From: Deltaproteobacteria bacterium
GTDB taxonomy: Bacteria; Desulfobacterota; Desulfarculia; Adiutricales; Adiutricaceae
DNA: 64,000 nucleotides
Direction: 5' to 3'
Assembly: GCA_031276865.1 (NCBI GenBank)
Contig: JAISMF010000065.1
Location: 32,379 to 96,378, forward strand
Positions within the stretch are counted from its first letter, which is position 1, and every line of letters begins with the position of its first letter. Shown here piece after piece: positions 10,960 to 62,209 of the stretch. Position numbers and translations under genes: made by a program. The notes beneath the pieces were generated by a model. That model was not told where the DNA came from, did no database searches, and was given only the letters and a program-made list of their open reading frames with translations.

Positions 10960-11400
10960 AATATTTTACTTTGCGAATCCAAAAGATACAAGCCTTTTCC
11001 ACGCTTTTTTTCTTTTTTTAATGTTTCCTGTAAACCAAAATTGGTTGTAATTACTAAAATTACAGCCTAAAAATTTATTTTTTATTCTATAAATTAAATA
11101 AAGTGATTTTTATATTTCTATTATTATATTTTATATATATTTATATATTTATCATTTATTTAAACTAAATTATACTTTATCATTTTAGTTAATTATATTA
11201 TTAACATTTTATTTTTGTCATAATTTAATTTCGACCCTTGCCAGCTCATATACCATCTCTTTAACAGGCTGAAATATTATTATAATTTTTATTAATATTT
11301 TATGTTTAAAATTTATAATTTTGGTTTAATGGAACTAAAATATTAAATTAATATGTAAAAAATATGGAAATAGATAAACTAGAGATAAAATGGGAGAGAA
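10960..11400. other. About 440-bp extremely AT-rich non-coding block
   Basis: Direct reading: runs such as tatatatatttatatatttatcatttatttaaac. No ORF. Abuts the purine tandem repeat. Confidence 0.9.
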
Positions 11401-11427: not shown

Positions 11428-11770
11428 CGAGAGGAAGAGATAATGAAATGAAGAGATAATGAGAGGAAGAGATAATGAGAGGAAGAGAGAATGAGAGGAA
11501 GAGAGAATGAGAGGAAGAGAAAACGATAAGAAGAGAAAACGAGAGGAAGAGAGAATGAGAAGAAGAGAGAATGAGAAGAGAGAATAAGAGGAATGGAGAA
11601 TAAGAGGAAGAGAGAATAAGAGGAAGAGAGAATAATAGGAAGAGAGAATAATAGGAAGAGAAAATGAGAGGAAGGGAGAATAAGAGGAAGAGAAAATGAG
11701 AGGAAGAGAAAATGAGAGGAAGAGAGAATGAGAGGAAGAGAATGAAAGGAAGTAAAGAGAGAGGGTGAGG
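11428..11770 (+). repeat. Tandem repeat of a 16-nt purine-rich unit GAGAGAATGAGAGGAA (about 21 copies, degenerate)
   Basis: Head-to-tail units read directly. The plus strand is almost purine-only apart from one T per unit. Confidence 0.95.
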
Positions 11771-13808: not shown

Positions 13809-13976
13809 GGCTAGACACCGCGAAAATATTATTTAATGTTTAACAATGAAAACTAAATTTCAGGCTTCCCGGCCTTGATTATAGCATTTCCCCGCCAACT
13901 CGTGAAGAGCCTAGGGTCGCAAGGTGGCCGCGGGCCGCGGGCGGAGGTCCGCTTTATTGTTCCAAAAAAGACATTC

Positions 13977-14060
13977 AAAAGCGACGGGTCAAAAGCGGCG
14001 GGTCAAAAGCGACGGGTCAAAAGCGGCGGGCCAAAAGCGACGGGTCAAAAGCGGCGGGCC
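13977..14060. repeat. 14-nt tandem repeat AAAAGCGRCGGGYC x6
   Basis: Read directly, perfect head-to-tail register. Confidence 0.9.
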
Positions 14061-14932
14061 AAAAACGAGCTTCCCAAAGCCGCGGGCGCTAGGGCGCTGG
14101 AGGCGGCTAAAACCCACGCCGGCGCAACCTGGGAAAGTGCGAAGCGCGGAAGCGCCCGGACCCTTGAGACGAAAGGCCGGAAGCGCAAATTCGGGGGAGG
14201 CCCGAATTGGCGGAAAAAACGAAAAGGGCCGGAAAACATTCGTGAAAAGCCGTTTCGGCTTCAGCGGCGAAGGTGTTTCCCTCCGGCGAAAAAATCGCCT
14301 TCCGGCGCGGCGAATTTCACCCCCGCGGAAGGCCAAAAAAGTCCAAAATAAAAAACAGGGCGCGGGTACATACCGCATATGGTTATATTATTCTCTATAC
14401 TTGGCAAATCACGCGTCTCGCATCAGACGCCGAGATTGTCCAGGGCGTTAGGGGCGGCTCCGATGGTCTATAATGGGTTACTCCAAGCGCGAGCCCCGAA
14501 CAATAAAAAAGCCCCAAACCATCGCTCATCTCCGCGGACGAAGTTTCACGACTTCGGCGTCTCAAGGACGCGTTCTTTTTTTGCGGCGACGCCGGAAAAT
14601 TTTCCGGCGGAAAGCGGGGCGGCCGAAAAACCACCTTCCCGGGCCTCACCCCCGTGGGCCCCCCGGACTGAAAAACGACATCGCCCGCGGCGTCTGCGGC
14701 GCCCATCGAGTCCGCGGCCATGACGAGCCGCGGGGATTTAGGGAGGGCCCGGGATTTTAAAAGCTTAAGACCTTGACGCGAGAGAGAGATCCCTAACTAT
14801 TTTCATTGTGAAATCAGCCGCTCTACGCTTTAAATAATTTTATACTAATAGTTCATAATTTATATAACTTATATAACTTAACTTCAATTAATAACGAACT
14901 TAAATCACACGCGCGTAAACCGTAAGGAAAGT

Positions 14933-20176: not shown

Positions 20177-20407
20177 AGCCGCTCAAACTCCCAAAGCCGC
20201 GCCCCGACCCGCCGGCGCGCCGCGCCGCCCAAAAACCCCTCCCGCTTTAAAATCCAACCCTCCCCTCATCCCCCCCCCAGCGCCGAAAAGCCCTGGCGGA
20301 GAAGCAGACGAAAAAACCGCGTCGTCTCCCCCCGCCCTGGGACGGAGGCGCGTCCCCGCGAAGACCCCGGACTTGTCACGCTTTTTCGGCCGCGACCTTA
20401 AGCCCGC

Positions 20408-32582: not shown

Positions 32583-32803
32583 TGGGCTTTTCCAAGGAAA
32601 CGGGCTTTTTTGGAGGAACGGACTTTGTCGGAGGGCCAACTTTTTAGGCGGGCCAACTTTTTAGGAGGACCAATTTTTTAGGCAAACCGGGCTTTTTCCA
32701 GTGAACCTAACTTTTCCGAATCTTCGGCTTTTCCGAAGATCCGGGCTTATCCGAAGATCCGGGCTTTCCCGAAAATTCGGGCTTTTCCGAAGTTCCGGGC
32801 TAT
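32583..32803. repeat. Degenerate 17-20-nt tandem repeats (GGGCCAACTTTTTAGGC... then CCGGGCTTTTCCGAAGAT...)
   Basis: Read directly in the oppF / M23 convergent spacer. Confidence 0.7.
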
Positions 32804-32983
32804 TTACAGGTCTGTTTCACCCAGAGAAGCTCGAAACGGGGCTTATCTCTGATAACTCAGGGATAAGACCCGTTAATCTTTTTCAGCCCCCTCTCTTTAA
32901 GAGAGCCTCCCTAGCGGCCCCGCGCGCCGTCTCCTTCACCTCCCCCCACGCGGCTCCACGGGCGCCGGCCATTACTTCCCGGC

Positions 32984-37055: not shown

Positions 37056-40000
37056 TTAGAACTCATACCCCAAACGAATGCCGCCTGATAGACCTTCAAT
37101 CTCGCCCACATATCCCTGGAAACCGAATTCAAGGGAGAAGTGCTTGTTTTCAGTGGGGTGGGAAATCAGGCCAATTTCAAAAATTCCTGTTCCGCCTGTC
37201 ATGGAGGGGGTATCTAATTGAAATCTGCCATCTTCAACGCTGGCTGTAAATTTTTGATCAAATTCATAATCATAATAGCCGCCCACATACCAGTACGTAT
37301 CATTGGGTGTGAGCCGTGTGTACCTGATGCCTCCACGGGCCCTTAAGGAATCAGTATCGGAAAAAGCGATATGTTCTCCATCCTCCACGTAAACAGATTT
37401 GCCGTTCAGGCGGGACCAGTAGCCTCTTAAGACAAAATCCAAACTGGAAACGGCGTTAATGTCGTACATATAAGCTAAACCTAAATGAGCGGCTAAATAA
37501 GGCGTGCGCAGCTTATATCCGAGGTAATCATTTTCGTTGAAATTTGGAACGGTGGATTTGAAATCATTTTCCATTGTGCCGCTCCGAAATGAGGCTTCAA
37601 TGCGAAACTTATTGTTAAACGTCTGACGAGCCATAAGGCCGAGTCCAATATAACGAAGATGACCTTCCCCTTTTATGAGTTCAGTAAGTCCGTTAATATG
37701 TTGCACTTCATCACCGATATCAAATTTTCCGTAACCACCTTCAACATAAACACCGAATAGAAATTTACCTAAGTCGCCGGTATACTTTTTGGCCACACCG
37801 GCTAAAAATGTGGAAGCGTTGATATCAAAATCATCCATAACATCAAGATTAAATCTGGAAAAATCAATTCCAGCAAAAATCTGCCAGTAATTATCACCGT
37901 TTATCGCCATATCGGCCTGCTGGTAACTGTGATCCGGAAGCCAGGTGCTGGTTTGAGCCATAAAAGCCGATCCCACGGCGAAACCCTGGGTAAATATTGT
38001 CGTAGTCGGAGATGGAGCAATACGCCGAAGCCGGGCTACCTGAAAACGATTGCCAGTTGTGTCTGTTCCTCCAGGCTTATCCATTCTATCTATTATAAAT
38101 TCATAATCTGTCATATTGCTTCTTCGGGATGAAGCATACTGATTTCTGGGGGTTCCACCAATTGAATAATTGGAGGCGGTAGATTCGTGATCGTTTGCTT
38201 CTTCTGAACCAGCACTTATAAGAAAAAACCGGTCATCACCTGGAACAAGCTCACGTCCTAAGGTAAAAGAAGATAACGTTATAAGAGCGCCTTCAACAGA
38301 GACTTGTCCAGGAGTAGTATCATTATTAGTGGGATAGACCTTTAACAGAACCCTATCAGCATTGTTAACATCATCTCCGTTAAGCATGAAATGAATTTGA
38401 CCTTCTAATTGAGCTTTCTTGATCCATAAAGTATTGGTTTGATTTGGAAAATGTAGAGGATCCTTTTCCCAGCCGTTTACTTCCATGTAACCCGCCGGGG
38501 ATAAATGAAAGATATGCTCCTCTGCATCTAGAGTCATGCCATCTTTAAGAATAGTTCTACTATTATCTCGAAGTTCCACGTTGTTAAGGATAATCCCGTG
38601 GTCATCTGGATCGTAAGTGCCAACTAAAAATACATTGTCGCCGTCCCAGATGAAATCGCCGCCGTTTCCTAAAACCTCCATAAAAAAAGAACCTGCATAT
38701 GTAGCAGTATCATTATCTAACAGCTGATCTACTTTTATAGGATCTAATACCTGAACTTGAGAACCTGATTGCGCATCGATAACAAGTTTCGCATTTGACA
38801 TAACTTTAGGAGCAAGTGTCTCATATTCTCCATCGATAGGGCTACTATAAGGTACAGGCACCCAATCTACTATCTGGACACCTCCAAAATACAAAGAATT
38901 GTAACGTTTAGCGCCATTTTCATTAATTTCGTTGTTTCTAAAAATAGTGTTGTTATTTCCATTGGCTTCTAAGATAAGCGTGTCATAACTTTCTTTATTT
39001 ATGCAATCACCGCTACCATCGAATTTATTGCATGTTCCTGTGTCAACAACAACTGTTCCGTATACTTTCGCATCAGGAGAGTTGTTTATACCGTTGTAAA
39101 TACCAGTGTTAGGGGTAACAGTTGAAGAAAATTTATTATCAGTAAACCAGCTGTTAGATATTTTTAAAGTACCGTTCGCATCTCCTTGGCCCAGCCCGAA
39201 GGTGTAAACAGCCCCTCCACCTATCGGACCGTTATTTGCGGTGATCTCATTTCCAACAAAAGTGCTGTATTCAATCAATGAAATATGAACCTTCGGCATG
39301 TTAGGATCTGGAGCGTTATTTCTAGTACCACGTAACCCGTTCACACCAATTATTCCGCCGCCATCTATGAACGTGCCGGCTGAGACCTTGATATTAATAA
39401 AGACATTACCTATCACAGAATCAATCGATGAAGATTCATCGGCCCATGTGCCTATGATACCTCCTCCCATTATAAATCCCGCAGAGCTCACCGCCGGGTC
39501 CGATACACTTTTGTCAAATAAAAAGTAGTTAGATGTAATCGTTCCTATGTGAGCAGTCGAACCAGGTTCATATCCCACAACACCGATAAAACCACCACCC
39601 TGGATGGAACCTAAAATAGATGTGGGCCCGCTTTGTCCGCTTGGCGGTCGTGTAGTTTTTACTTTATTATCTTTATTAAAAGTGTTTCCGCTTATCGTTC
39701 CAATTTCACCTGGTCCTTGCCATGTCATTACGCCAATCAGTCCACCTCCGACCATGCCTAAACCATTTAATGTCACCTCATTGGCTATGTAATCATTTCC
39801 AGACACATTATTTATGCGGGCAGGCGCTGTCGAAGTTAACCCTAAAGCGCCGATTATACCGCCACCAAGTAGACTCGAGGTGTTATTTGTCAAAGTCTGA
39901 ACTTTCAGTTCGGAGAACTCATTTTCCGATATATCTCCAAGTTCAGCAAGACCAAACGCCGACATAGCTCCTATAATTCCGCCTCCGAATAATAAATTCG

Positions 40001-42554
40001 CGTCACTAACGGTATTGTCGTGAAACACATTTCCTTTTACAGTCAATATATGCGCGGTAGCATCGGGATTAGATGTATTTGTTACTCCGCTCGCTCCAAT
40101 AATGCCACCGCCGTATAAAGTTTCCGCCTTAACTGTGTTTTCATGAAAAATATTTGCTCCGGTTACACTAGTTATCTCAGATTTTCCTTCTAAAGAATAA
40201 GCGCCAAAAATACCTCCGCCAAATAATATCGAAGTCGCTTCTACAGCATTCCCTTGAATCTCATTTCCAGTTATATCATATATATAAACTTCGCCCTGAT
40301 CTTTAGTTCCAGCGACACCAATTAAACCGCCTCCGAATATTTCGTCCGCTATAACAGTAGGGTTGGCAGTATCCGTATCAATAATTACATTATTTGAAAC
40401 AGTATCTATTTCAGCTTTACCAGTTTCGGAATATACACCGATAATTCCACCTCCGGTAATATTATCTGTTATTACAATTCTGCTGTCTTTTATTTGATTT
40501 CCATCAACTGATCCTAGATGGGCATTTCCTGTATTGGCTGGATCGTTTGTAGGCGCAGCCAATCCTAACAAACCGCCGCCTTTTAAATTATTTGAACTGT
40601 AGTAAATGTATTCAAATCTATTTTGTTCAAACGATATACCAAAGGCGCTACCTTTTTCAGCCCTGACGCCGATAATTCCGCCACCAATCGTATCGTTAAT
40701 TATCTCAACTTTAAATGTTTGATAGTCTGAACTTCCAATGAAATAATTACCATTAATCACGCCCACGAAGGCGGCGGCAGTGACGCTGTCGGCGGCATCA
40801 ACTCCGATAACTCCTCCACCCAAGAGATCGTGCTGTGCTATGACGCTAATATTGTCAAAATAATTATCGTTTATAAAGCCTAACGCAACAGTCGTTGCTG
40901 ATGATATACCTACAAGACCGCCACCTCTTATATCTCCGAATTGCCCATCGCTTGAAGCTGAACCACTAGTAGTGGCGGAAATATTTATCCCACGGAACAC
41001 ATTTCTCTGCAATGCGGCCAAGGAAGACGCGTTTACCATACTGCGCAGACCGATTATCCCGCCTCCCTCTATATTTCCACCTTCATAAGTAGTAGCTGTA
41101 CCTGAGTCGGGAACAGTAACTGTACCTCTAAAAGTTCCGGTTGTTACTTCTATATTATAAAAGAGATTATCCTGCGCTATATTTAATGTACTACCCGTAG
41201 TCTTATTACTATTTTCATTAGCCTGTAATCCGACAATACCACCGCCACGTATATAAGTTCCCACATTGACAGTTATACCGGCGAAAGTATTATTTTCAAG
41301 AATGTCCAGCTTATTCGTTGCATTAGAGAGGGCGTTTAAACCGATAACACCTCCGCCGCGTAGAGCGTATTGACTTTTAATATCAATACCACCGTTGGAG
41401 ACCCCCTTTGTCCCGCTTCCAAAAATATTACCGCTAACAGTCAGAAGGTTTGCTTCGGTATCATCAGTAGCCCGGCTATTATTATTAACACCGACGACAC
41501 CTCCTCCCAATATTATGTCTCCCGAATCGATATTTATTTGATAAAATAAATTATTTTTAAGTTCACCTATTTGCGCGATACCTTTTTTCACTGCTGGCGA
41601 TGATACCCCGTCAACTCCAATTATGCCACCGCCTTCTATATAAGGTTTCCCGTCTGCCGTTGTATTGGTAGTCACCACGCTGAGATTGCGGAAAATATTT
41701 CCTTCAATTGAACCTATTTCGGTCGATCCGTCTGTTGAACGTAGCCCGATGATACCTCCGCCGGCTAGATAATTCTTATCAGTGTTAACATTATTGGTTG
41801 TAACAGTGATTTCAATGTTGCTAAATTCATTTTCCTTAATGTGTCCAAAGCTTTCATGTTGGGCGTTGTTTGAGACGTTCCCTATGAACGTGTTGACCGC
41901 ACCATTGGGAGCAGTATATGGGTCATCAGCGGCGAACTGAATTTTAAAATCTTTAAATCTAATATTATCAATAGAAAAGTTAGTAACACCTGAATCCATT
42001 CTTATCAATTTATTGTTATTCCCAGCAGCGGCTGGACCGGTATACGTCCTAGTGTTTCCATCTCCTTGTATATAAATCATAGAGCCGGTGTTCATGGAGC
42101 TTAAACTTAGGAAACTAGTAAATGCCGTTCCAAAGTCGGCAAGAGCGGTGGAATATGAGCTCGAAGGATCGAAAGACGGATCGAGCGGATTTATATTTGC
42201 CAAATTATTATTCGTTATTAAAGAGGACGCGGTTCCGCTGATTACGGTTCCGTAGGTCGTCCCAAGTGTTCCCCGCAAAGTCTGGCCTGACGCGCTAACA
42301 GGTATACCATTATCTGTATTGATAATCTCCACGCCAGTCACAGTATCCTGAAAATAGATAGTTCCATTAGCAGGCGTGCCGGAGAACCCTCCCAATAACT
42401 CGGCGTGACCAACCTCTCCAGTACCTGTTACCATATTTCCCCTGGCCGTTCCCGCCGCCAAAATCAGCGCAGTGAAAACCAGGAACAGTATCGAGAGCGG
42501 CGTGGAGGTGAGTGGTGTTTTTCCCGCTGTCTGGTGAATCATTCTCCTAGGCAT
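37056..42554 (-). CDS. Giant Pmp-like (polymorphic outer membrane protein repeat) autotransporter adhesin, 1832 aa
   Basis: N-terminal signal-like segment LSILFLVFTALILAAGTARG. About 20 copies of GGG(I/V/L)(I/V)G, each preceded by (G/N)N-x-F-x-x-(I/N/V). C-terminal ~280 aa of alternating beta-strand pattern ending GIRLGYEF. Strong SD aaggagg. Confidence 0.8.
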   Translation of the reverse strand: MPRRMIHQTAGKTPLTSTPLSILFLVFTALILAAGTARGNMVTGTGEVGHAELLGGFSGTPANGTIYFQDTVTGVEIINTDNGIPVSASGQTLRGTLGTTYGTVISGTASSLITNNNLANINPLDPSFDPSSSYSTALADFGTAFTSFLSLSSMNTGSMIYIQGDGNTRTYTGPAAAGNNNKLIRMDSGVTNFSIDNIRFKDFKIQFAADDPYTAPNGAVNTFIGNVSNNAQHESFGHIKENEFSNIEITVTTNNVNTDKNYLAGGGIIGLRSTDGSTEIGSIEGNIFRNLSVVTTNTTADGKPYIEGGGIIGVDGVSSPAVKKGIAQIGELKNNLFYQINIDSGDIILGGGVVGVNNNSRATDDTEANLLTVSGNIFGSGTKGVSNGGIDIKSQYALRGGGVIGLNALSNATNKLDILENNTFAGITVNVGTYIRGGGIVGLQANENSNKTTGSTLNIAQDNLFYNIEVTTGTFRGTVTVPDSGTATTYEGGNIEGGGIIGLRSMVNASSLAALQRNVFRGINISATTSGSASSDGQFGDIRGGGLVGISSATTVALGFINDNYFDNISVIAQHDLLGGGVIGVDAADSVTAAAFVGVINGNYFIGSSDYQTFKVEIINDTIGGGIIGVRAEKGSAFGISFEQNRFEYIYYSSNNLKGGGLLGLAAPTNDPANTGNAHLGSVDGNQIKDSRIVITDNITGGGIIGVYSETGKAEIDTVSNNVIIDTDTANPTVIADEIFGGGLIGVAGTKDQGEVYIYDITGNEIQGNAVEATSILFGGGIFGAYSLEGKSEITSVTGANIFHENTVKAETLYGGGIIGASGVTNTSNPDATAHILTVKGNVFHDNTVSDANLLFGGGIIGAMSAFGLAELGDISENEFSELKVQTLTNNTSSLLGGGIIGALGLTSTAPARINNVSGNDYIANEVTLNGLGMVGGGLIGVMTWQGPGEIGTISGNTFNKDNKVKTTRPPSGQSGPTSILGSIQGGGFIGVVGYEPGSTAHIGTITSNYFLFDKSVSDPAVSSAGFIMGGGIIGTWADESSSIDSVIGNVFINIKVSAGTFIDGGGIIGVNGLRGTRNNAPDPNMPKVHISLIEYSTFVGNEITANNGPIGGGAVYTFGLGQGDANGTLKISNSWFTDNKFSSTVTPNTGIYNGINNSPDAKVYGTVVVDTGTCNKFDGSGDCINKESYDTLILEANGNNNTIFRNNEINENGAKRYNSLYFGGVQIVDWVPVPYSSPIDGEYETLAPKVMSNAKLVIDAQSGSQVQVLDPIKVDQLLDNDTATYAGSFFMEVLGNGGDFIWDGDNVFLVGTYDPDDHGIILNNVELRDNSRTILKDGMTLDAEEHIFHLSPAGYMEVNGWEKDPLHFPNQTNTLWIKKAQLEGQIHFMLNGDDVNNADRVLLKVYPTNNDTTPGQVSVEGALITLSSFTLGRELVPGDDRFFLISAGSEEANDHESTASNYSIGGTPRNQYASSRRSNMTDYEFIIDRMDKPGGTDTTGNRFQVARLRRIAPSPTTTIFTQGFAVGSAFMAQTSTWLPDHSYQQADMAINGDNYWQIFAGIDFSRFNLDVMDDFDINASTFLAGVAKKYTGDLGKFLFGVYVEGGYGKFDIGDEVQHINGLTELIKGEGHLRYIGLGLMARQTFNNKFRIEASFRSGTMENDFKSTVPNFNENDYLGYKLRTPYLAAHLGLAYMYDINAVSSLDFVLRGYWSRLNGKSVYVEDGEHIAFSDTDSLRARGGIRYTRLTPNDTYWYVGGYYDYEFDQKFTASVEDGRFQLDTPSMTGGTGIFEIGLISHPTENKHFSLEFGFQGYVGEIEGLSGGIRLGYEF

Positions 42555-45925: not shown

Positions 45926-46229
45926 GGTCGAGGGGTGAGGAGTGAGGGGTGAAGGGCGATGCTTAAAAGTAACAGATGAGGAGTGAGGAGTGAGGAGTGA
46001 TTGGTGAAGGGTGAGTGGCGAGGGTTGATGGATGAGGGTCGAGGGTGAAAGTTGAAGGTTCCTAATCTCAGGTCGAGGATTAAGGTTGAAGGTTCCTGGT
46101 CTCAGGTCGAGGATTAAGGTTGATGGGTCCTGGTCTCAGTTCGAGGATTAAGGTTGAAGGTTCCTAATCTCAGGTCGAGGGTTAAAGTTGAAGGTTCCTG
46201 GTCTCAGGTCGAGGGTTAAGGGTTGAAGC
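45926..46229. repeat. G/T-rich repeat block: degenerate GGTGAGGA-type repeats, then five perfect-register 34-nt units (46051-46220)
   Basis: Unit GTTGAAGGTTCCTRRTCTCAGGTCGAGGRTTAAG read head-to-tail with no spacers. Confidence 0.9.
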
Positions 46230-49679: not shown

Positions 49680-50220
49680 CTCCGGGCGGGAAAAGCGGAA
49701 ATCCGGAAAGGATAAAAGCCTTGAAGAAGAAATTCTCTTTTTAAAGAGATCGGGGAGAAAAGCGCCTTGAACCCGCCGGCCTCGACGGTCTTTTTCCGCT
49801 CCCCGGCCCCGCCATTCTAGTTCAGGGCCGCTTGAAGTTCAAGACGCGTCCGGAGACTGTATTCAAACTCGGTGCCAAAACAGGAGTTTAAGCGGGGTTG
49901 AAACAAAAAAAATACCCAGGTCCTTCTTTTCCCTCATCCAGCCTGACGCGAAGGACTAACTTTTCGGCTGAAAATCAATATACGAAGTATATATTATATA
50001 TAATTTGTCTAATTATAATAACACGGTAAAAAATCAATCCCGCCCCGCCATCCTCCGCTCCTCCGCGCGGACGGAGACGGCCGGAAGCGGCGCCGGAAAA
50101 TCAAGGAGTTTTTCCGGAACTCCAGCGCGCGGGAAGGCGCCTCCTCCCGGCTCTTCACGCTCCCCGTGAGCCGGGGCGGGGAAAAAGCGAGGCGGGGCGA
50201 ACTAAGTTGGCGGAACTTAA

Positions 50221-50280
50221 GTTCGCCCGCCGGTTCGCCCGCCGGTTCGCCCGTTGGTTCGTCCGGTGGTTAGCCCGCCG
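50221..50280. repeat. 12-nt tandem repeat GTTCGCCCGCCG x5 (degenerate)
   Basis: Read directly. Confidence 0.8.
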
Positions 50281-50942
50281 GAAAAAGTTCCCACCTCAAA
50301 TAAGCCAAAAACCGGGGCCGCGGTAAGTTAAAAGACAAACCGGACTTGGCCCGGAGTCCGGCCGGAGAGGCCTCTGAAAAACATGCTCGACGCGGGCGCT
50401 TGAACCCTGGAGACTTCTAAAACCCCGTATATTTTCGGTTACCGGCGAGCATCTCATTATATACTGTATATTTATTAGTTTTTCCTATATATTGTGTAAA
50501 ATTTCTTTCTATTTTGAGAGACGGTTTTCCCGCGCCCATGAAGATTTAAAGCCTGTTTTAAAAGCGAGCCTTTCCGCATCGGGCGGCGCGGCGGATTTTT
50601 TCGGCTCCGGTTTCACCGGCGTTCGCGCCCTTTTTCCCTCCCCCGCCTTTAGGGCCCCGGGGTCTTTCCGGTTTGAGGATTTTATTGGCGTCTTTCTTAC
50701 AGCATACCTTCTATTATTTACTCTCTAATTTATACATAATTTAGGCCTCCGCGGCTTCCCGCCTTCTTTCCGGCTCCGGCGTCCATGACGACGCCTCCGG
50801 CCTGAAATCTTCCTAGGCGTTCCGTGTCCGCCGGGCGCTAAGCCCCCGACCCGGACTACTTTCGGAAGGCTGGTATCTTACTGACGCGGGACGTTTATAC
50901 GGAGGCGGCTTTGGGGAGCCGCCGCTCAAGGGAGGGGAAAAA

Positions 50943-52115
50943 TTAGAAGACGCAGCAGGTGAAGGAATAGGTGTGGATCCTGTTGGTAAGGGAACCGTCC
51001 CGGTTTCTGAAGGGACAGATCTCGCCTCCGGAGTAGCAGAAGATGTAGGGAAGCTTGTTTTCGCCCCCCAGATGCTTTTTTATCGCCTTGATCTCCATCT
51101 CCGCGTCGTAGCTGAAGGCCACGAAGTACCTGGCGGCGCAGGAGTGGAACACGGCGAAGGTGTAGTCCTTTTCAGCCTTCATGGACTCCAGGGTCTTGTC
51201 CACGGAGGCCTGAAGTTCGGAAACATCGATGTTGCTAACCGAAATGGTGGCCCCCCGCTTGACTCCGCTGTTTAAGATCACGGAACCGTCCTCCAGGTTG
51301 GTGAGCATGGCCCTGACGTAGGGAAGGGATCCGTCGTTTAAGTCCATTATCAGGGGGAAAAGCTCGGGAAAGAGGAGGTTTCCGGCTTCGTCCTCGGAGA
51401 GGCCCATCTGCAGGAAGTAGTCCTTGGCGGGATAATCGTTGATGGTGAGGATGCGGTTGTTCTTGGAGGAGGTTATCACCCCCTTGTCCTTGAGGTGCTT
51501 CTCCTCCGAAAAGGAGCCCCTAAAAAAGCGGGGCTTCACGTCTCCGTAGATGAGGAGGATGGACATCCTGTCATCGAAGGCCTCCCCGTTGAAGAGCACC
51601 TTGGCGTCGTTGAAGCTGACCAAGGCCGGACTCGAGGAGAGGGTCCCGTAAATGGGCACCCCCGGGGCCAAAGAGGACAGGTACTCGATCATGGTGTCCG
51701 GATCGTATTCGGACACCAGGGGAAAGAAGGTCATGATGAGGGTGGGCTCCCCCCCGCGCCTTTCCTTCGCCTCCCTATAAGCCCGCTCCACCACCGAATT
51801 GTCCCCGCTTTTCAAGCGCTCCGTGGCGACGGCGGAAAACTTCAGCTCGTCGGAGGTGATCACCATCAAAGCCAATATCTGGGAGACCCGGCTGGTGGCC
51901 ACAGCCGCGGTGATGGTGGTGGCTCCCAAGACGGGAAAATCCAGTTTTTGACAAAGCGCCTCGTAAACGCCCGAAAAATGAAACCCGGGGTCGCAGTAGA
52001 CGAGTCCCACGGAGTCGGAAAGCAGCTTCGAGGTGTCCAGCCGCCCCAGGAGCTCGTTTACGGCGGCGTCGACGTCGTCAAGTTCTTCGGTGTAGGCGAT
52101 CAGGGCTTTATGCAT
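50943..52115 (-). CDS. FIST-domain (FIST_N/FIST_C) signal-sensing protein
   Basis: Overall pattern of FIST proteins (LVYCDPGF..., VLGATTITAAV, ...FHSCAARY..., FCYSGGEICPF). Start taken at MHKALIAYTEE. The track ORF extends to 52217 with a low-complexity 34-aa extension. Confidence 0.6.
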   Translation of the reverse strand: MHKALIAYTEELDDVDAAVNELLGRLDTSKLLSDSVGLVYCDPGFHFSGVYEALCQKLDFPVLGATTITAAVATSRVSQILALMVITSDELKFSAVATERLKSGDNSVVERAYREAKERRGGEPTLIMTFFPLVSEYDPDTMIEYLSSLAPGVPIYGTLSSSPALVSFNDAKVLFNGEAFDDRMSILLIYGDVKPRFFRGSFSEEKHLKDKGVITSSKNNRILTINDYPAKDYFLQMGLSEDEAGNLLFPELFPLIMDLNDGSLPYVRAMLTNLEDGSVILNSGVKRGATISVSNIDVSELQASVDKTLESMKAEKDYTFAVFHSCAARYFVAFSYDAEMEIKAIKKHLGGENKLPYIFCYSGGEICPFRNRDGSLTNRIHTYSFTCCVF

Positions 52116-53619
52116 AAACGGTGTTTTTCCTTCGGACGGGCCGGGCCGTAGGGCGGCTGAGGCGGATAAGAGGGGGAAAGGGGCCGATGAAAGGGAGAAA
52201 CGTTCCGGAAAGGCCACAGCTCCGGCTCAACCGGTCATCCTTTGCGAAATAACGCGGACGCTCTTTATTTCGACGCCCATCCTGAAGGGCGCCTTCCGCC
52301 GGGAACCCTAAGCGCCGCCCCCTTTCACAAGCGCCCTTTTCCCGCCCGAAGGCGGCGAAAACGCCGGAAGGCCGCCAGGACGGCGCCGGATCCCGCGGGA
52401 AAAGAGGAAAGCCGCCGGAGCCGGCGGAGGCGCTTAAAAAAAAGCCATCCCGGGAAAGACCCCGCGTGAAGGGAACGATGCTGGAAAAAGGAGGAAAAAG
52501 CACGATTCCTAACTTCGAAATCGGCGATCGGTCCCGGAGATGGCGTTCCAGAGCCCGGGGAAAGCCGGGCGAATTCGTTTGGAGCCCTCGGGGGCTCTTG
52601 ATTGGCATCTATCTTAACTTAAAGAGCGTCTCTTTGCCAGTTTTCGCGGACCTTCCGCTTTTCCGCCCCGCCCCGAGGCCTCCGAAGAGCTCAGGAAATA
52701 TAGACGAAACGCGCCTCCCTTCCCGTCTGGCGCTCAAAATCCAACGCGTTTTCTCAAAAACCCATGCGGGGCGGATCCGGGCTCGCCCCCGCTCTAAAGA
52801 CCCCGGGTTGAGGACCTTTTCAATTTTAAGGCGGTTTTTACGCTCTTTCCCTCTGACAAAGCCTTCCCCGGCCTTGTTAATCGTCACCATACGCGCAATA
52901 ATAAATAGCGTAACGGCCTCTCGGGGCTGTTGTTTCCGCGCTTCCCCACCGGGGCCGCGAAAGTTCGCCGAAAGTCCTTAGGGACGCGTCCCGCGGCGAA
53001 ATTCGCGGCGAAACGCGAAAAAGCCGCGAAAGGGAAAAGGCCGAAAGGCGGCCCGGTATTCCCGAATTTATTTTTTTGGGTTTTTTTTTGGCTTCCGGAC
53101 CTCTTTTCCGGTCGTGAAAACATTTTTTTCATTTTTTTCAGCCTGGTTTCGGGGCTGGTTCCGCCAAATTCGCCAGGGCGTTGAGGCTTCCGGAAGCCCG
53201 CCTTGACCGCGAAAGATGGTATTCTTAGCTTAATAAAATACTATATATCACAGCTCACCCCTTTAGAGCGGAAAATGAAAAATTTGGGGCATCTTTCGCA
53301 TATTTAGGCTTAAGTGGAGTTTCTGATAAAATAAGTTAAAAAAAACACCCAATAGTTGAAAAATTCGCTTGCATTTCTCTAATGAATGTGATAAATCATT
53401 GTAGTTCAAGGAGTTAAGCGCTCACATATACGGCGTACCGGCGTGAAGGGCGGCCCATAAAAAGCCCGGCCGACCCGGCCCGCGAGGCCTTTTCCGGAGC
53501 CTACCGGGTCCCCGACCCGCCGCTCCGGCCCCATTTCTGAAAATCACCCCCAAGGACGCGCCGGATATCCGCCCGGGCATGACCCGGACCACACGATTTA
53601 GTGGAGAGGCTGGATTTAG

Positions 53620-54916: not shown

Positions 54917-56113
54917 ATGAATTATGATCTAATGACGATGATCCGCGACCGGCTCTGGCCCCTTTTGAACATGAATCAGAAGAAAATAATGGCGGCTATT
55001 TTCGCCCTGGAAGCCGGCCCCGGAAAAGCCCAAACCATTGTGAATTTTATAAAATTAGACGCGAAAGCCATCTCGGAGGGCGTGCGTGAATATAACAAGA
55101 AATACTTCACGCCGCCGAGGCTGATTCTGCACGCCCCCCACGCGCCCTTCAAGGAATACGTCGACCCCGATTACATCTCCGATTTCCGCGCTTTCGTGGA
55201 GGAAACAGTGATCGCGGACAGACGTCCGGACCGCCGGAAGGATAAAACCCGAAGGCGACAATCAGGAGCCAGTTTTTATCCCGGTAATTTCCTCGATCAG
55301 GAAAGCTTTAATCGGATCTTGGAATTTTTAGGCCACCATTCCATACCGCCGGAGGTAGCGGAAAGGGTTGGAGAAAATATCGTAATCATAGATTTACAGG
55401 TTAATGCCGCGTTACAATTTATTCAAAATAATTTCGCCAATAAGGACCTTATTTTTTATGTAAACATTAAAAAAAAGAAAATCTCCGGCATCTTAGGCGC
55501 CTCAGGAAGGAATATCCTTTCCGGCGCTTCGCCCGGAGCGGCTTCCGGAGAGGGACGTCCCTCGCCGGAGTCTCCCCATGATTATCCGTACGGCATCTTC
55601 GATATACCCGCCGATACGGATCACGCCTACGTTGGAGAATTCCACGACGTCTGGTCTTTCACAATCGCTTCCATCAAAGGATGGTGGTTCAAGCGGGGAA
55701 CGAAGATCTTCGACGGCAGCCCGCCTCGCACCAACATAGTCGTCAACAACGCCAAAGGGGACGCTTTCAAAACGAAGCAGAGCATGCTGGAGGTTCAGAA
55801 CTTCGCCGACGAGATCCAAGGCGAAGTGATGATTAAAATACTTCCGCCCAACATGGGGTCCGTCACGCGCGGAGCTAAAAGACTCTTCACGATCAACGCC
55901 GGCGACGGGAAAACCGGATATGAAACCAAAGTGGATTTTATCGGAGAACCCGAGATGGGGAAACTTGTGACGATATTTAACAAGCCGTCTAAAACTGTCG
56001 TCGCGGTGGGCCGCGAGGTCTCAGACGCGGAAACCGTCTGGCTCAACATGAAAACAATTCCTTTTTTCGATACCTGGAATTACGCCATGTCGCCCATCCC
56101 GAAGAGCTCTTGA
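54917..56113 (+). CDS. ISAzo13-family (DDE_Tnp_ISAZ013) transposase homolog, apparently catalytically degenerate
   Basis: Colinear with my recollection of the family pattern: PYGIFD, VGEFHD..F...SIKGWW, ILPP, FFDTWNYAMSP versus PYGVYD, VGIDHDTA.FA..SIRRWW, HLPPGTSKWNKIEHRLF, FHGEWNYTI.P. No terminal inverted repeats recognised. Confidence 0.55.
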   Translation: MNYDLMTMIRDRLWPLLNMNQKKIMAAIFALEAGPGKAQTIVNFIKLDAKAISEGVREYNKKYFTPPRLILHAPHAPFKEYVDPDYISDFRAFVEETVIADRRPDRRKDKTRRRQSGASFYPGNFLDQESFNRILEFLGHHSIPPEVAERVGENIVIIDLQVNAALQFIQNNFANKDLIFYVNIKKKKISGILGASGRNILSGASPGAASGEGRPSPESPHDYPYGIFDIPADTDHAYVGEFHDVWSFTIASIKGWWFKRGTKIFDGSPPRTNIVVNNAKGDAFKTKQSMLEVQNFADEIQGEVMIKILPPNMGSVTRGAKRLFTINAGDGKTGYETKVDFIGEPEMGKLVTIFNKPSKTVVAVGREVSDAETVWLNMKTIPFFDTWNYAMSPIPKSS

Positions 56114-56502: not shown

Positions 56503-56597
56503 GAGCCGGACGGAACAACCTAATGGCCCCGGACGGAACAACCTAAAGGCCCCGGACGGAACAACCCGGAGTAAGGCGCCCGGACGGATCGACCCGG
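56503..56597. repeat. 21-24-nt tandem repeat GCCCCGGACGGAACAACCTAA x4 (degenerate)
   Basis: Read directly. Confidence 0.8.
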
Positions 56598-58460: not shown

Positions 58461-59642
58461 ATGGCCAAGGCCGACAAACATAAAAAAACCAAAGAAACTC
58501 AGACCCATTCCACCGAGGACGCCCGGGACAAGGCTCTGTCCGACGCCGTCTCCCAGATCGAGAAAAGCTTCGGCAAGGGGGCCATCATGCGGCTGGGCAC
58601 GGGCGAGCAGGAGAAGGTGCCGGTCATCTCCACCGGCTCCATCACCCTGGACGCCGCCCTGGGCATCGGCGGCATTCCCCGGGGCCGCATCATAGAGGTC
58701 TACGGCCCCGAGTCCAGCGGCAAGACCACCCTGGCCCTGCACATAGTGGCCGAGGCCCAGAAGGCGAAAAACGCCCAGGGCCAGAACGGGGTGGCGGCCT
58801 ACATCGACGCCGAGCACGCCCTGGACACCTCGTACGCGAGACGCCTGGGCGTGAACACCGACGAGCTCCTCATAAGCCAGCCAGACCACGGGGAGCAGGC
58901 CCTGGACATCGCCGAGATCCTCGTGCGCAGCGGATCGGTGGATCTAATCGTCATCGACTCCGTGGCCGCTTTGGTTCCGGAGGCTGAGATCCAGGGCGAC
59001 ATGGGCGACTCCCACGTGGGGCTCCAGGCCAGGCTCATGAGCCAGGCGTTGCGGAAGCTCACCAGCTCCATCCACCGCTCCATGTGCTCGGTCATCTTCA
59101 TCAACCAGCTGCGCATGAAGATAGGCCCCATGGCCTACGGCAATCCCGAGGTCACCACCGGCGGTAACGCCTTGAAATTCTACGCCACCATGCGTATCGA
59201 GATCCGCCGCTCCATCGCCATCAAAAACTCCAGCGATCAGCGCATCGGAAACGAGACCAAGGTCAAGGTGGTGAAAAACAAGATGGCCCCCCCCTTCAAG
59301 GAGGCGATCTTCGAAATCTATTACGGCCGGGGCATCAGCCACGAGGCCGAGCTCCTGGACTTAGGTTCCTCTCTGGAAATCGTGGACAAGAGCGGCGCCT
59401 GGTACGCCTACCAGGGCGAGCGGATCGGCCAGGGAAAGGAGAAGGCCATCGCCTTCCTCCAGACCCACCCCCAGATCGCCAAGGAGATCGAGGAGAAGCT
59501 GAAATCGGCCTACGGCATCATCCCCGAGAAGATCGCCGAGGCCGAGGCCCAGATCCGCTTCGACTCCCCGCCGCAGGAGGACGACGACCTGGTGGAAGAG
59601 GAGCTCCCCCCGGACATCCAGGAGGCCGTCTCGGAGGCCTGA
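58461..59642 (+). CDS. recA: Recombinase RecA with ~20-aa basic N-terminal and acidic C-terminal extensions
   Basis: [15 protein letters not shown], Walker [39 protein letters not shown]. Confidence 0.95.
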
Positions 59643-59732
59643 GCCAACGCTCCGGAAAGCTTCCGGACGCTATCGGCGGGAGAAGCCGCAAGACGGCCTC
59701 TCGAAGTTCGCTTTTCATCATCGTTCTTTTTC

Positions 59733-59764
59733 CAGACAGGCGCCCGCGGGCGCCTGTCTGTTTT
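59733..59764 (+). terminator. recA intrinsic terminator
   Basis: cagacaggcgcc-cgcg-ggcgcctgtctg, 12-bp stem followed by TTTT. Confidence 0.75.
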
Positions 59765-60056
59765 CCGGCGCGACTATCGCTCGACTAATTTATTTTCTTC
59801 ATTTTACGCTAAATCCGCAGGTAAGCGCCACCCGGCCGCGGGGAACCACCGAGGCGCCTCTCCGACCCTAAAGAATCGAAGCAAGGGGCGTTCGCCAGTT
59901 TCGCGGGTTTTCAAACCCAATATATTCATTTCTCTCTTTCTCTCTTTTTCTCTTTATCTTTTTTCTCTCTCTTCCTTTCTTCCTCTCTACATCTCTTTTT
60001 CCTTCACCATCTTCTTCTCTCTTTTCTCTTCAGCGCTTTTTATCATCATTTTTTTC

Positions 60057-60087
60057 CAGACAGGCGCCACAAGCGCCTGTCTGTTTT
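60057..60087 (+). terminator. Second, near-identical copy of the recA terminator hairpin inside the module array
   Basis: cagacaggcgc-cacaa-gcgcctgtctg followed by TTTT. Preceded by the same catcat...ttttt context as copy 1. Confidence 0.6.
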
Positions 60088-62209
60088 CCGGCGCTTCCGT
60101 CTTTCGGCGCGGCTGTCTTTCGACTGATTTATTTTCTTCATTTTACCGCAAATTCGAGGAAAAGCGCTACCCGGCCGCGGAAGCCACCGAGTCGCCCCGC
60201 CGACCCTAAAGAATCCACTCAAGGGACGTTCGTCACTTTCGCGGTTTTTCAATCCCTCATAATTCTTTTTCTCTCTTTCTCTTTTTTATCTTTTTTCACC
60301 TCTCCCTCTCCCTCTTTCTTTCACCGCTTCCCAACTTCCTCTCATTCTTTCTTCCTTTATTATTTCATTTATTCCTTATCTTTCTTTCTTACTTTTATTC
60401 CCTCTCTCGCTCTTTCGCCGCGTCAAACTTTGTAAGCGGCCATGACACTTTTTCACCTCCAAATCTTTTCAGCCACTTCCGACTAATTTATTTTCTTCAT
60501 TTTACTGGCATTTAAAATTAAATGCCGTCCCGGACGGCGGGCGCCGCCTAGGCGCCGCCATAGACTCGAAAGGCCCTCCTCGACGGGCGTCCGCCAGTTT
60601 TCCGCTGTTCAACCCCCCTTTTTCTCCACCTCTCCGCCGCGCCCTAATTCTCCCATTCGTTTACTTTCCCGAACAACATCCCTCCCATTCCGCCTCTTCC
60701 CTATTCTTCATCTCTCTCTTTCCTCTCTTCCTCTATTTCCTCCCTTTTCGTCTCTTTATCACTCCTTTTCGCTCTTTTCAACTCTCTAATGGTCGGAGTC
60801 GATTTTATAGTCGCGACCCTTTCAACAGTTTCCCACGATTTTATTTTCTTCATTTTACTGTATATTATAAAAATTACGCCATCCCTCCGCAGAGATCTTC
60901 CGGCGGCGAAGCCGAGCGAGAAGACTGTTTTCAGGGAGCATCCTCATGGTGAACGCGTCTTTTCCCGGCCTTCGGCTTTTCCGCTGTTTTAGCTTTTTCC
61001 CCTTTTTCTATTTTTTTAGTTTCAGCCGTTTTTTTTGGTTTTCTATCATTTATATTCTACCGTCCTCTCATTCTCGCTATTTCTCCCTTTCCATCTTAAA
61101 ACCCTTTTCGTTCTCGATGCCGCCGGGCTTAATTTATGGTTCCCGCTCTTTTAGCTCCGCCGACAGATTTATTTTCTTCATTTTACTGTAAATTTTTGCA
61201 AAATGAGCTTCCAGCCGAAGGGAGCGCCCCGAAGCGGGGATGGCCTCTATGAGAAAACGCCTCCTGTTTTCAACGTTTTTTAGCCGCTTCGGCTTTTGAT
61301 TTTTTTCCGTTCCGTTAATTTTTCTGTTTTAAAACTCTATTGTATTCTTACTCTCGGACGCCATCACTCTCTCTCCAGGCCTCAATCCTCGAGACGCTTT
61401 TTCTCCTCTTCGAAGCGGCCAGGGTTGTTTGAACGGCTCATGGCGATTTTCTCACTAAAAATATTTTCTTGATTTTACTGTAATTAAATAAAGCGCTTAG
61501 TGCCGGAGGTCTCCACCGATCGGCCTTCCTGGTCCGCGGAGACCATCCACGTCGGGCGGCCGCGAGGTTTCTTCTTGACTTGTTTTATCCGTTTTTTGGG
61601 CTTTTTTCGGATTTTTCGTTTTTTCGCTTGTTTTGGTTTTTCGCTTTTTTCGCTATTTTGAGATTATTTTTGCGTTGTTTTCTATAACTCTCTATTTTAT
61701 TTTTTTCTCTCATTTTTGCGATTTTTTGGCATTTTTGTTATTTACTCGCTTTTTCGCCTTTTTCTCTCTTACTCTCTCTTCGCTCTCTTCGCTCATCCGC
61801 TCTTTTCCCTCGTTTCTTCTTACCTCTCTTCCCGCTCCTTCCACCACCTCCGCCTCTTTCCTTTATTCCCTTATTCCAAAGCGAATCTTCTTCCGGCTCT
61901 TTCCGGATTTCCCGCCCTGTCGGCTTTCGGCCGCCCGAGCGGCCCGGCCCGCTCTTCCGTTCCGGCCTGGGCCTTGATTTCCCAATCCAGGTTCTTGACG
62001 CTTGTTCTAGAGGCCGGGGTCTTCAATAAGGAAAAAGAGGCCCTCCGGCCGCGCCGGAGTCTTTTTCCCGGAAGCGCCGCTCTTGGTATATAATCAAGTG
62101 TCGAATTCCTTCTTTCCGGACCGGGTTCCGGCCGGAAGAGGGGTCGCCCTTCGGGCGCTCCCGGCGCCGTAGCGCTTCCGGGATTCACGACTCTTTCAGG
62201 TGCGCAGGT

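Follow-up and report, generated by a model that had tools for sequence, protein, structure and literature searches.

Multicopy small RNA (sRNA) families are represented by the lhrC genes of Listeria, of which lhrC1-4 lie in tandem, by Qrr1-5 of Vibrio and by the streptococcal CiaR-dependent csRNAs. Rho-dependent terminators contain rut sites, in which the RNA is C-rich, G-poor and unstructured over at least ~70-80 nt of the transcribed strand. The LhrC1-5 sRNAs are LisR-dependent and G-poor, and bind Shine-Dalgarno regions through redundant UCCC motifs (PMC4132741). In this work, we analyzed the recA-alaS spacer of an uncultured termite-gut-type deltaproteobacterium, within a 64-kb window (the whole stretch of DNA analyzed, from contig JAISMF010000065.1). 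The spacer holds six units, or modules (M1 to M6), that are co-directional with recA and alaS, each made of an 18-nt core, a head and a pyrimidine-rich tail. All findings on this array refer to a single locus of one metagenome-assembled genome (MAG), within this window. Judged by its sequence, it is a real, statistically solid, lineage-specific non-coding array, in which one element is under clear constraint.

The array is like the multicopy sRNA families in that a single intergenic region contains several small non-coding units of one orientation, with their own upstream conserved element and, in some units, their own terminator. As in LhrC, its RNA would be pyrimidine-rich and G-poor, and able to pair with purine-rich ribosome-binding sites. 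Unlike those families, in which the body or the seed is conserved, the bodies of the array have diverged to noise. Its architecture would therefore resemble that of multicopy sRNA loci with the conservation pattern inverted, the promoter-proximal block being invariant and the bodies free. Where LhrC has short loop motifs, the pyrimidine part of the array is a 120-300-nt low-complexity tract, without any sequence or Rfam relationship to those families. A trans-acting sRNA family of the LhrC/Qrr type was rejected, as the bodies of most pairs of units are at shuffle level and the inferred start falls at the conserved block or downstream of it. The tails (119-297 nt long, with 71-83% pyrimidine, 27-42% C and 5-13% G on the + strand) have the composition of rut sites and are co-directional with the flanking genes, a likeness known by composition only; they differ from typical rut regions in being much longer, purer and built from slippage repeats.

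An invariant core in diverged units

The core 18-mer (TTATTTTCTTCATTTTAC) is exact in five modules and carries two changes in the sixth (T1A and C11G, giving ATATTTTCTTGATTTTAC, 16/18). All copies are on the + strand, with start-to-start spacings of 339, 359, 353, 328 and 292 bp (Table 1), so that the six co-oriented modules at 292-359-bp intervals described in the original prediction are borne out. Shuffled sequences gave an expectation of 0.04 core matches, and none of 100 shuffles reached six. No further match at three or fewer mismatches was found on either strand of the window, which holds ~45 genes; by this measure the core is not a generic promoter, an ordinary explanation that the original prediction had itself named. 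With the copies placed in register, the conserved block is wider than the core, at ~34 bp, and reads about CGACnrATTTATTTTCTTCATTTTAC-yG-TAAATT. The CGACTRA motif said to precede the core is present in M1-M3; M5 has CGACAGA instead, and M4 and M6 differ.

Outside this block, clear homology is confined to M1 and M2 (local-alignment z 27-31), whose heads are ~79% identical (21% of head positions differ). The pairs M1-M3, M3-M4, M3-M6 and M4-M5 are weakly related, and the remaining pairs score like block-shuffled sequence. To judge from these scores, the units are old tandem duplicates joined by a chain of fading homology. At the divergence of M1/M2, the youngest pair, the chance of finding 18 unchanged core positions is 0.79^18, or ~0.014, and for saturated pairs it is negligible. 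The claim that conservation of the core far exceeds that of the other module parts is thus upheld, as the core is 18/18 in five copies while most flank pairs are at shuffle level; this argues that the core is under constraint, and on these figures its conservation needs selection or directed homogenisation.

The same comparison bears on a neutral explanation, which we consider unlikely, namely that the array is a functionless tandem duplication in a slippage-prone decaying genome whose core was kept uniform by short-tract gene conversion or by chance. The many intergenic tandem repeats and long non-coding gaps in this genome and its relatives are in line with it, as are the absence of the array from the relatives and the neutral appearance of the heads. 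Chance, however, would have to account for 18/18 retention in five saturated copies, where even M1 and M2 alone give the low value above. Gene conversion limited to the same 20-34 bp in each of the 6/6 units, while their neighbours reached shuffle level, is the sole neutral alternative, and a contrived one.

Terminators and the proposed direction of transcription

The intrinsic terminator of recA folds at -22.9 kcal/mol (centroid of the hairpin alone) or -27.1 kcal/mol (minimum free energy of the 51-nt stretch; z -4.2 against shuffles), and a duplicate of it closes M1. In this duplicate, the two arms are contained in an 18-nt (left) and a 22-nt (right) block that are 100% identical to 59727-59744 and 59750-59771, and the loop alone differs. 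These 40 nt have remained unchanged despite ~20% divergence around them (0.8^40, ~1e-4), which suggests that the second hairpin was also kept as a terminator. Since the recA terminator lies ~25 nt upstream of core 1, a + strand RNA stopped at the second hairpin must have its start within M1, and there nothing but the core block is conserved. Of the other units, M5 has a small intrinsic termination signal, a hairpin with a T-run ~95 nt past the core that matches in a terminator scan and is weak on its own (-5.8 kcal/mol, z -1.2); in M2, M3, M4 and M6 such signals are weak or absent. A further stop signal, a strong hairpin with a T-run, stands between the array and the alaS promoter (Table 1). 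At the end of the M2 tail, a weak hairpin (60417-60441; -9.5 kcal/mol, z -2.1) aligns with the terminator.

Transcription of the - strand was weighed against the + strand and seems distinctly unlikely. It would start from the core complement GTAAAATG, which holds a good -10 hexamer, TAAAAT, and would drive purine-rich RNAs leftward through the A/G tract of the preceding unit; the RNA that leaves unit 1 would run antisense to recA at its 3' end. TAAAAT is present in 6/6 copies, M3 has a terminator-like hairpin on the - strand (60538-60524), and Alifold pairing is slightly greater on that strand. Against this, inspection revealed no upstream -35 or TGn on the - strand of any unit, the strong hairpins run there into A-runs rather than T-runs, and the invariance of the 12 nt downstream of the -10 would be left unexplained.

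The position of the terminators also speaks against the core being an RNA-level seed, UUAUUUUCUUCAUUUUAC, that pairs, like the seeds of multicopy sRNAs, with mRNAs beginning ...GUAAAAUGAAGAAAAUAA (start codon plus Lys-Lys-Ile). In M1 and M2, the distance from a strong terminator to the core downstream of it is 25-45 nt, too short for the promoter that a seed would need, and no conserved promoter-like block precedes the cores. Contiguous invariance is typical of sRNA seeds, the core complement does read as a start codon followed by a lysine-rich N-terminus, and two real gene starts in the window (19220 and 22226) have 11-13 nt in common with it; no target at three or fewer mismatches exists within the window, and we regard a seed function as very unlikely.

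Composition and coding capacity of heads and tails

The original prediction had described each core as followed by a GC-rich segment of ~100 nt with a fixed end motif and by an almost pure C/T tract. The heads are not GC-rich: at 50-63% G+C (59-63% in M1-M3, 50-54% in M4-M6) they lie around the window mean of 55%. The end motif (G)TTTTCAA/GTTCAA was recovered 106-107 nt past the core in M1-M3 and at 87 nt in M5, whereas the head ends of M4 (GTTTTAG at +134) and M6 (TTGTTTTAT at +110) only resemble it. As for the C/T tracts, stretches of at least 85% pyrimidine follow M1 (59904-60059), M2 (60229-60425), M3 (60660-60795) and M6 (61729-61882); in M4 and M5, the tail is rich in T and its purine content is 21-29%. 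Heads compared with the rest of the window gave short low-complexity or terminator-like matches only.

Elsewhere in the window, another long pyrimidine tract lies at 11.4-11.8 kb; it runs in the direction of the adjacent genes and has no core copy. It consists of 20.6 copies of a 16-nt unit (GAGAGGAAGAGAGAAT on the + strand) at 11429-11752, is CT-rich on the - strand and lies downstream of - strand genes; beyond it along the - strand, ~350 bp (11040-11400) are extremely AT-rich.

Table 1. Position of the array units, their signals and the flanking features in the window.
Feature	Position	Strand	Remarks
recA	58461..59642	+	393-aa open reading frame (ORF); left flank
recA intrinsic terminator	59733..59764	+	12-bp GC-rich stem, then TTTT; perfect inverted repeat I1
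Core copy 1	59790..59807	+	exact; conserved block ~59782-59817
M1 head	59808..59914	+	107 nt, ends GTTTTCAA; fold z +0.66
M1 pyrimidine tail	59915..60050	+	8/16-nt slippage repeats; 18% purine, 6% G; Tandem Repeats Finder (TRF) periods 8, 16, 35
Duplicate of recA terminator	60057..60087	+	closes M1; -21.8 kcal/mol, z -5.1
Core copy 2	60129..60146	+	exact
M2 head	60147..60252	+	106 nt, ends TTTTTCAA; fold z +0.18
M2 pyrimidine tail	60253..60440	+	17% purine, 5% G; weak hairpin at end
Core copy 3	60488..60505	+	exact
M3 head	60506..60612	+	107 nt, ends GTTCAA; weak but detectable homology to M1 (z 5.1); fold z -2.2
M3 pyrimidine tail	60613..60795	+	17% purine, 42% C, 6% G
Core copy 4	60841..60858	+	exact; then TG-TATATT
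M4 head	60859..60992	+	long-range stem, then CGGCTTTTCCGCTGTTTTAG; -41 kcal/mol, z -1.2; weak homology to M3 and M5 only
M4 T-rich tail	60993..61125	+	21% purine, 50% T
Core copy 5	61169..61186	+	exact; then TG-TAAATT
M5 head	61187..61305	+	includes GTTTTCAA (ends 61273) and terminator-like AGCCGCTTCGGCT + TTTTGATTTTTTT (61282-61305)
M5 T/C-rich tail	61306..61420	+	29% purine
Core copy 6	61461..61478	+	2 mismatches (T1A, C11G)
M6 head	61479..61588	+	fold z -0.8; weak homology to M3
M6 tail	61589..61885	+	T-rich 9/17/26-nt repeats, then C/T tract 61729-61882; 20% purine
GC hairpin and T-run, right array boundary	62043..62070	+	just upstream of alaS promoter; terminator-scan match on both strands; -22 kcal/mol
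alaS -10 hexamer TATAAT	62089..62094	+	read from sequence; alaS ATG at 62211

No ORF is common to the modules on either strand. In the M1/M2 heads, the three codon phases hold 8/9/7 of the mismatches and there is also a 1-nt indel; this lack of codon periodicity argues that the units are non-coding. Read on the - strand, the core gives ATG AAG AAA ATA AAT; in M1 and M3 a stop follows these five codons, and in M6 the ATG is missing. Coding on either strand was ruled out on the strength of the missing shared ORF and the absence of codon phase in the M1/M2 substitutions. The same observations separate the array from the tandem type I toxin-antitoxin repeats of Escherichia coli, LDR (ldr-rdl) and SIB (ibs-sib), whose units, each a few hundred bp long, lie in intergenic DNA and bear promoters. 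The array is like them in unit length and in its tandem, intergenic layout, would be like them in having promoters on its units, and is unlike them in lacking a conserved small ORF on either strand, the - strand peptide MKKIN being cut short as described; type I toxin-antitoxin repeats were rejected on the same ORF and codon-phase evidence.

Mobile DNA and searches of known elements

The ends of the heads raised the question of mobile DNA. IS608 inserts 3' of TTAC and ends in TCAA, and its subterminal hairpins lie at a distance of ~19 nt (left site) and ~10 nt (right site) (PMC3201880). The array has TTAC at the end of the core, immediately left of the head, in 6/6 units, and TCAA at the right end of the head, 87-107 nt later, in 4/6 units, as if the heads were remnants of miniature elements of the IS200/IS605 type, or cassettes at a recombination core. 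Being homologous through common descent, these positions do not count as separate events. The hairpins do not lie at 19 nt from TTAC or 10 nt from TCAA, the units are not dispersed, and the bodies are far more diverged than the supposed flanking target, the reverse of what mobility predicts. The window showed neither a dispersed nor an inverted copy, and no TnpA/TnpB gene either (TnpA was not seen among the nine larger ORFs scanned), the only transposase identified being an ISAzo13-type DDE enzyme at 54917-56113, and no match was found in plasmids, phages or viral contigs. We consider the mobile-remnant explanation largely refuted, and its probability as slight.

The original prediction had also allowed that the modules might prove to be fragments of a known insertion sequence (IS), miniature inverted-repeat transposable element (MITE) or prophage. 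Searches for a known plasmid, phage or Rfam family came back empty: blastn of the spacer against plasmids and phages found no match, and Rfam gave no match at gathering score in the window and, at E<=10 on the spacer, two noise matches only. A scan for tRNA and tmRNA found none. An IS or MITE fragment likewise found no support on sequence inspection; a MITE with terminal inverted repeats was rejected, as there is no - strand core at three or fewer mismatches and the inverted pairs in the spacer are four unrelated ones. Among the matches listed for the 18-mer in a genome contig collection, every one was single, in an unrelated genome and without flank similarity. In a metagenome contig collection, a 20-mer gave 40 matches, all single and due to chance, and in a viral contig collection none. 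Two array types were rejected on their spacing, which is 292-359 bp here. These were a CRISPR array, with its spacers of 26-72 bp, and an iteron origin, the repeats of which measure ~20 bp and are set at helical spacing beside a rep or dnaA gene; no cas gene and no rep/dnaA, respectively, was identified among the ORFs examined in the flanks.

The locus in relatives

The protein MDR2199560.1, annotated as "MAG: recombinase RecA [Deltaproteobacteria bacterium]", matches RecA of the window at 100% identity, and the nearest named relatives are Candidatus Adiutrix MAGs. We fetched the recA-region loci of seven relatives via RecA homologues; 4/7 span recA to alaS and 3/7 are short contigs, with RecA identities of 88-91%. 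In L120, L122 and L123 (RecA identity 88%, 78% and 80%), the order is DUF1638-recA-alaS-purD with a short spacer of 620, 408 and 232 bp, respectively, and without recX; in L121, ~10 kb of other genes separate recA from alaS. The array had been placed where recX normally sits, a description that does not apply in this clade, where three relatives carry alaS directly after recA. TATAAT is found at the place equivalent to that of the alaS -10 hexamer in L120 and L122.

Neither the core, nor a module, nor anything alignable to the spacer was found in the recA-region loci of the seven relatives, and a sequence-only model of the 42-nt block gave marginal matches only (E 0.047 in L120, E 0.06 in L122). 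As far as can be seen from these loci, the array is specific to this lineage. To speak of a family of elements, as the original prediction did, does not suit an array known from one locus, with recA regions of relatives that are free of it and collection scans that returned single chance matches. Upstream of recA in L120, which among the relatives with a long contig is the closest, there is an exact 14-mer, ATTTTCTTGATTTT, identical to part of core copy 6, probably by chance. It stands just after TTGACA-N19-TTTAAA and is followed by seven copies of CCCATAGGATTGGAG and a hairpin with T7, so that L120 1430-1700 looks like a small repeat-containing transcription unit, the homology of which to the array would be marginal at the E value given above.

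A proposed model of six co-regulated units

Two bases past the core, five units have a -10-like hexamer; positions +3 to +8 read, from M1 to M6, TAAATC, CAAATT, (GCATTT), TATATT, TAAATT and TAATTA. With these elements in view, we tentatively favor the possibility that the array consists of six co-regulated + strand transcription units with a non-canonical promoter, the core being recognised by a protein, and C/U-rich tails that serve as Rho-loading or anti-Shine-Dalgarno sequence. What we infer from the sequence is that the units are transcribed, from which strand and from where, that a protein binds the core, and what the tails do. According to this model, a single small non-coding transcription unit would have been duplicated in tandem long ago to give the six now present in the spacer, all of them read on the + strand. 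Each unit would begin with the invariant AT-rich recognition element, the 18-mer within its ~34-bp block, acting as a non-canonical promoter or operator. The core may be the contact site of a dedicated activator or alternative sigma factor, through which the six units would be co-regulated. Transcription would start ~10-20 nt past the core, pass through a head of ~90-130 nt of ordinary composition and then enter the C/U-rich, G-poor tail of 120-300 nt. As unstructured RNA, the tail would likely be the working part or the stop signal, and may load Rho in a rut-like manner and/or pair with purine-rich Shine-Dalgarno regions; where present (M1 and M5), an intrinsic terminator would close the unit.

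Several results weigh against this model. Scanning 59400-62400 on both strands for canonical sigma-70 promoters (-35 and -10 hexamers with at least 9/12 matches and a 16-18 bp spacer) returned no site, no -35 hexamer was found with the -10-like element of the core, this element is poor in M1-M3, and TG abuts the hexamer directly instead of occupying the TGn position. A promoter rarely has 18 contiguous invariant bp, and the core lacks palindromic symmetry. Recognisable terminators are found in M1 and M5 only. The heads show no excess of RNA folding over shuffles (z +0.66 to -2.2), and the check on covariation that had been proposed for them, run with Alifold on M1-M3 for both strands, gave nothing convincing, so the RNA bodies look unconstrained. 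The relatives offer no comparative support. Finally, the intergenic DNA of the clade is full of slippage repeats, and the C/T tracts may be mutational by-products of slippage and not selected features. Taken together, the lack of a -35 hexamer and of a sigma-70 match and the presence of the -10-like hexamer near the core would point to a factor-dependent, non-canonical promoter with the core as its contact site. On sequence inspection only, with no formal scan, none of sigma-54, sigma-28 or T7-type promoters, LexA/SOS box, DnaA box, IHF or Fur box fits the core, and neither do integron attC or dif/Xer sites.

Some of these results would also suit a protein-binding array that has no promoter role, in which the core is the site of a nucleoid-associated or partition-type protein, of a recombinase or transposase, or of a fork- or transcription-barrier protein, and everything else is spacer. 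Contiguous invariance over at least 18 bp and strict co-orientation are in keeping with such a site, as are the empty promoter scan and the apparent lack of constraint on the RNA bodies. A spacing of ~300 bp in a single six-copy cluster is, however, unlike known centromere, iteron or Ter layouts, no candidate gene for a binding protein adjoins the array, and the conserved duplicate of the terminator argues for transcription inside it; we hold this explanation to be improbable. Returning to the model of co-regulated transcription units, a bolder form of it appears doubtful to us, and decidedly so. Here, the core would be the site of an undescribed specific factor (a class II activator, an alternative sigma or some other determinant of polymerase specificity) that drives six long pyrimidine-tailed non-coding RNAs, the nearly purine-free C/U tracts of which act in trans as decoys for Rho or mask Shine-Dalgarno sequences globally.

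Genome background

The intergenic DNA of the window is unusually rich in short tandem repeats (periods 12-34 nt), for example at 13975-14087, 20406-20499, 25226-25325, 32622-32809, 46037-46228 and 56506-56597, and intergenic gaps of 1-2 kb are frequent in it, likewise upstream of recA in L120 and L122. One such gap of 1.26 kb (49680-50942), beside a histidine kinase, has no ORF of at least 90 aa; L122 and L123 carry there a second gene for a FIST-domain protein. A tblastn search with the FIST protein of L123 found as sole match the other FIST gene of the window (50943-52217), so the second one was lost or has decayed past recognition. The ISAzo13-family transposase gene mentioned above (+ strand; PF07592, E 8e-20) lies between CheD and DUF1638, where L122 and L123 have nothing. 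On the - strand, an ORF of 1832 aa (37056-42554) has a third-codon-position G+C (GC3) of 0.36 compared with 0.7-0.9 in its neighbours, no Pfam domain and an AT-rich non-coding flank (35.5-37.0 kb); horizontal acquisition is the probable origin of this giant protein. Two adjacent + strand ORFs at 22857-25074 contain 108-bp in-frame repeats (23130-23329 and 24529-24752), which suggests repeat-domain proteins.

Biological meaning

For now, the practical value of the array is limited, as it is one locus in one metagenome-assembled genome. If our model is wrong, the locus shows how slippage-prone, decaying genomes of the symbiont type build kilobase-scale non-coding arrays between essential genes. 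If it is right, the spacer is a natural experiment, in which six duplicates have drifted to noise save for an element of ~34 bp. This element would then pinpoint a protein-DNA (or polymerase-DNA) recognition sequence in an uncultured lineage that lacks genetics, and long pyrimidine-only RNAs would be added to the bacterial non-coding repertoire. Should the bolder form hold as well, C/U-tract decoys acting in trans would be a kind of bacterial RNA regulator without a described counterpart.

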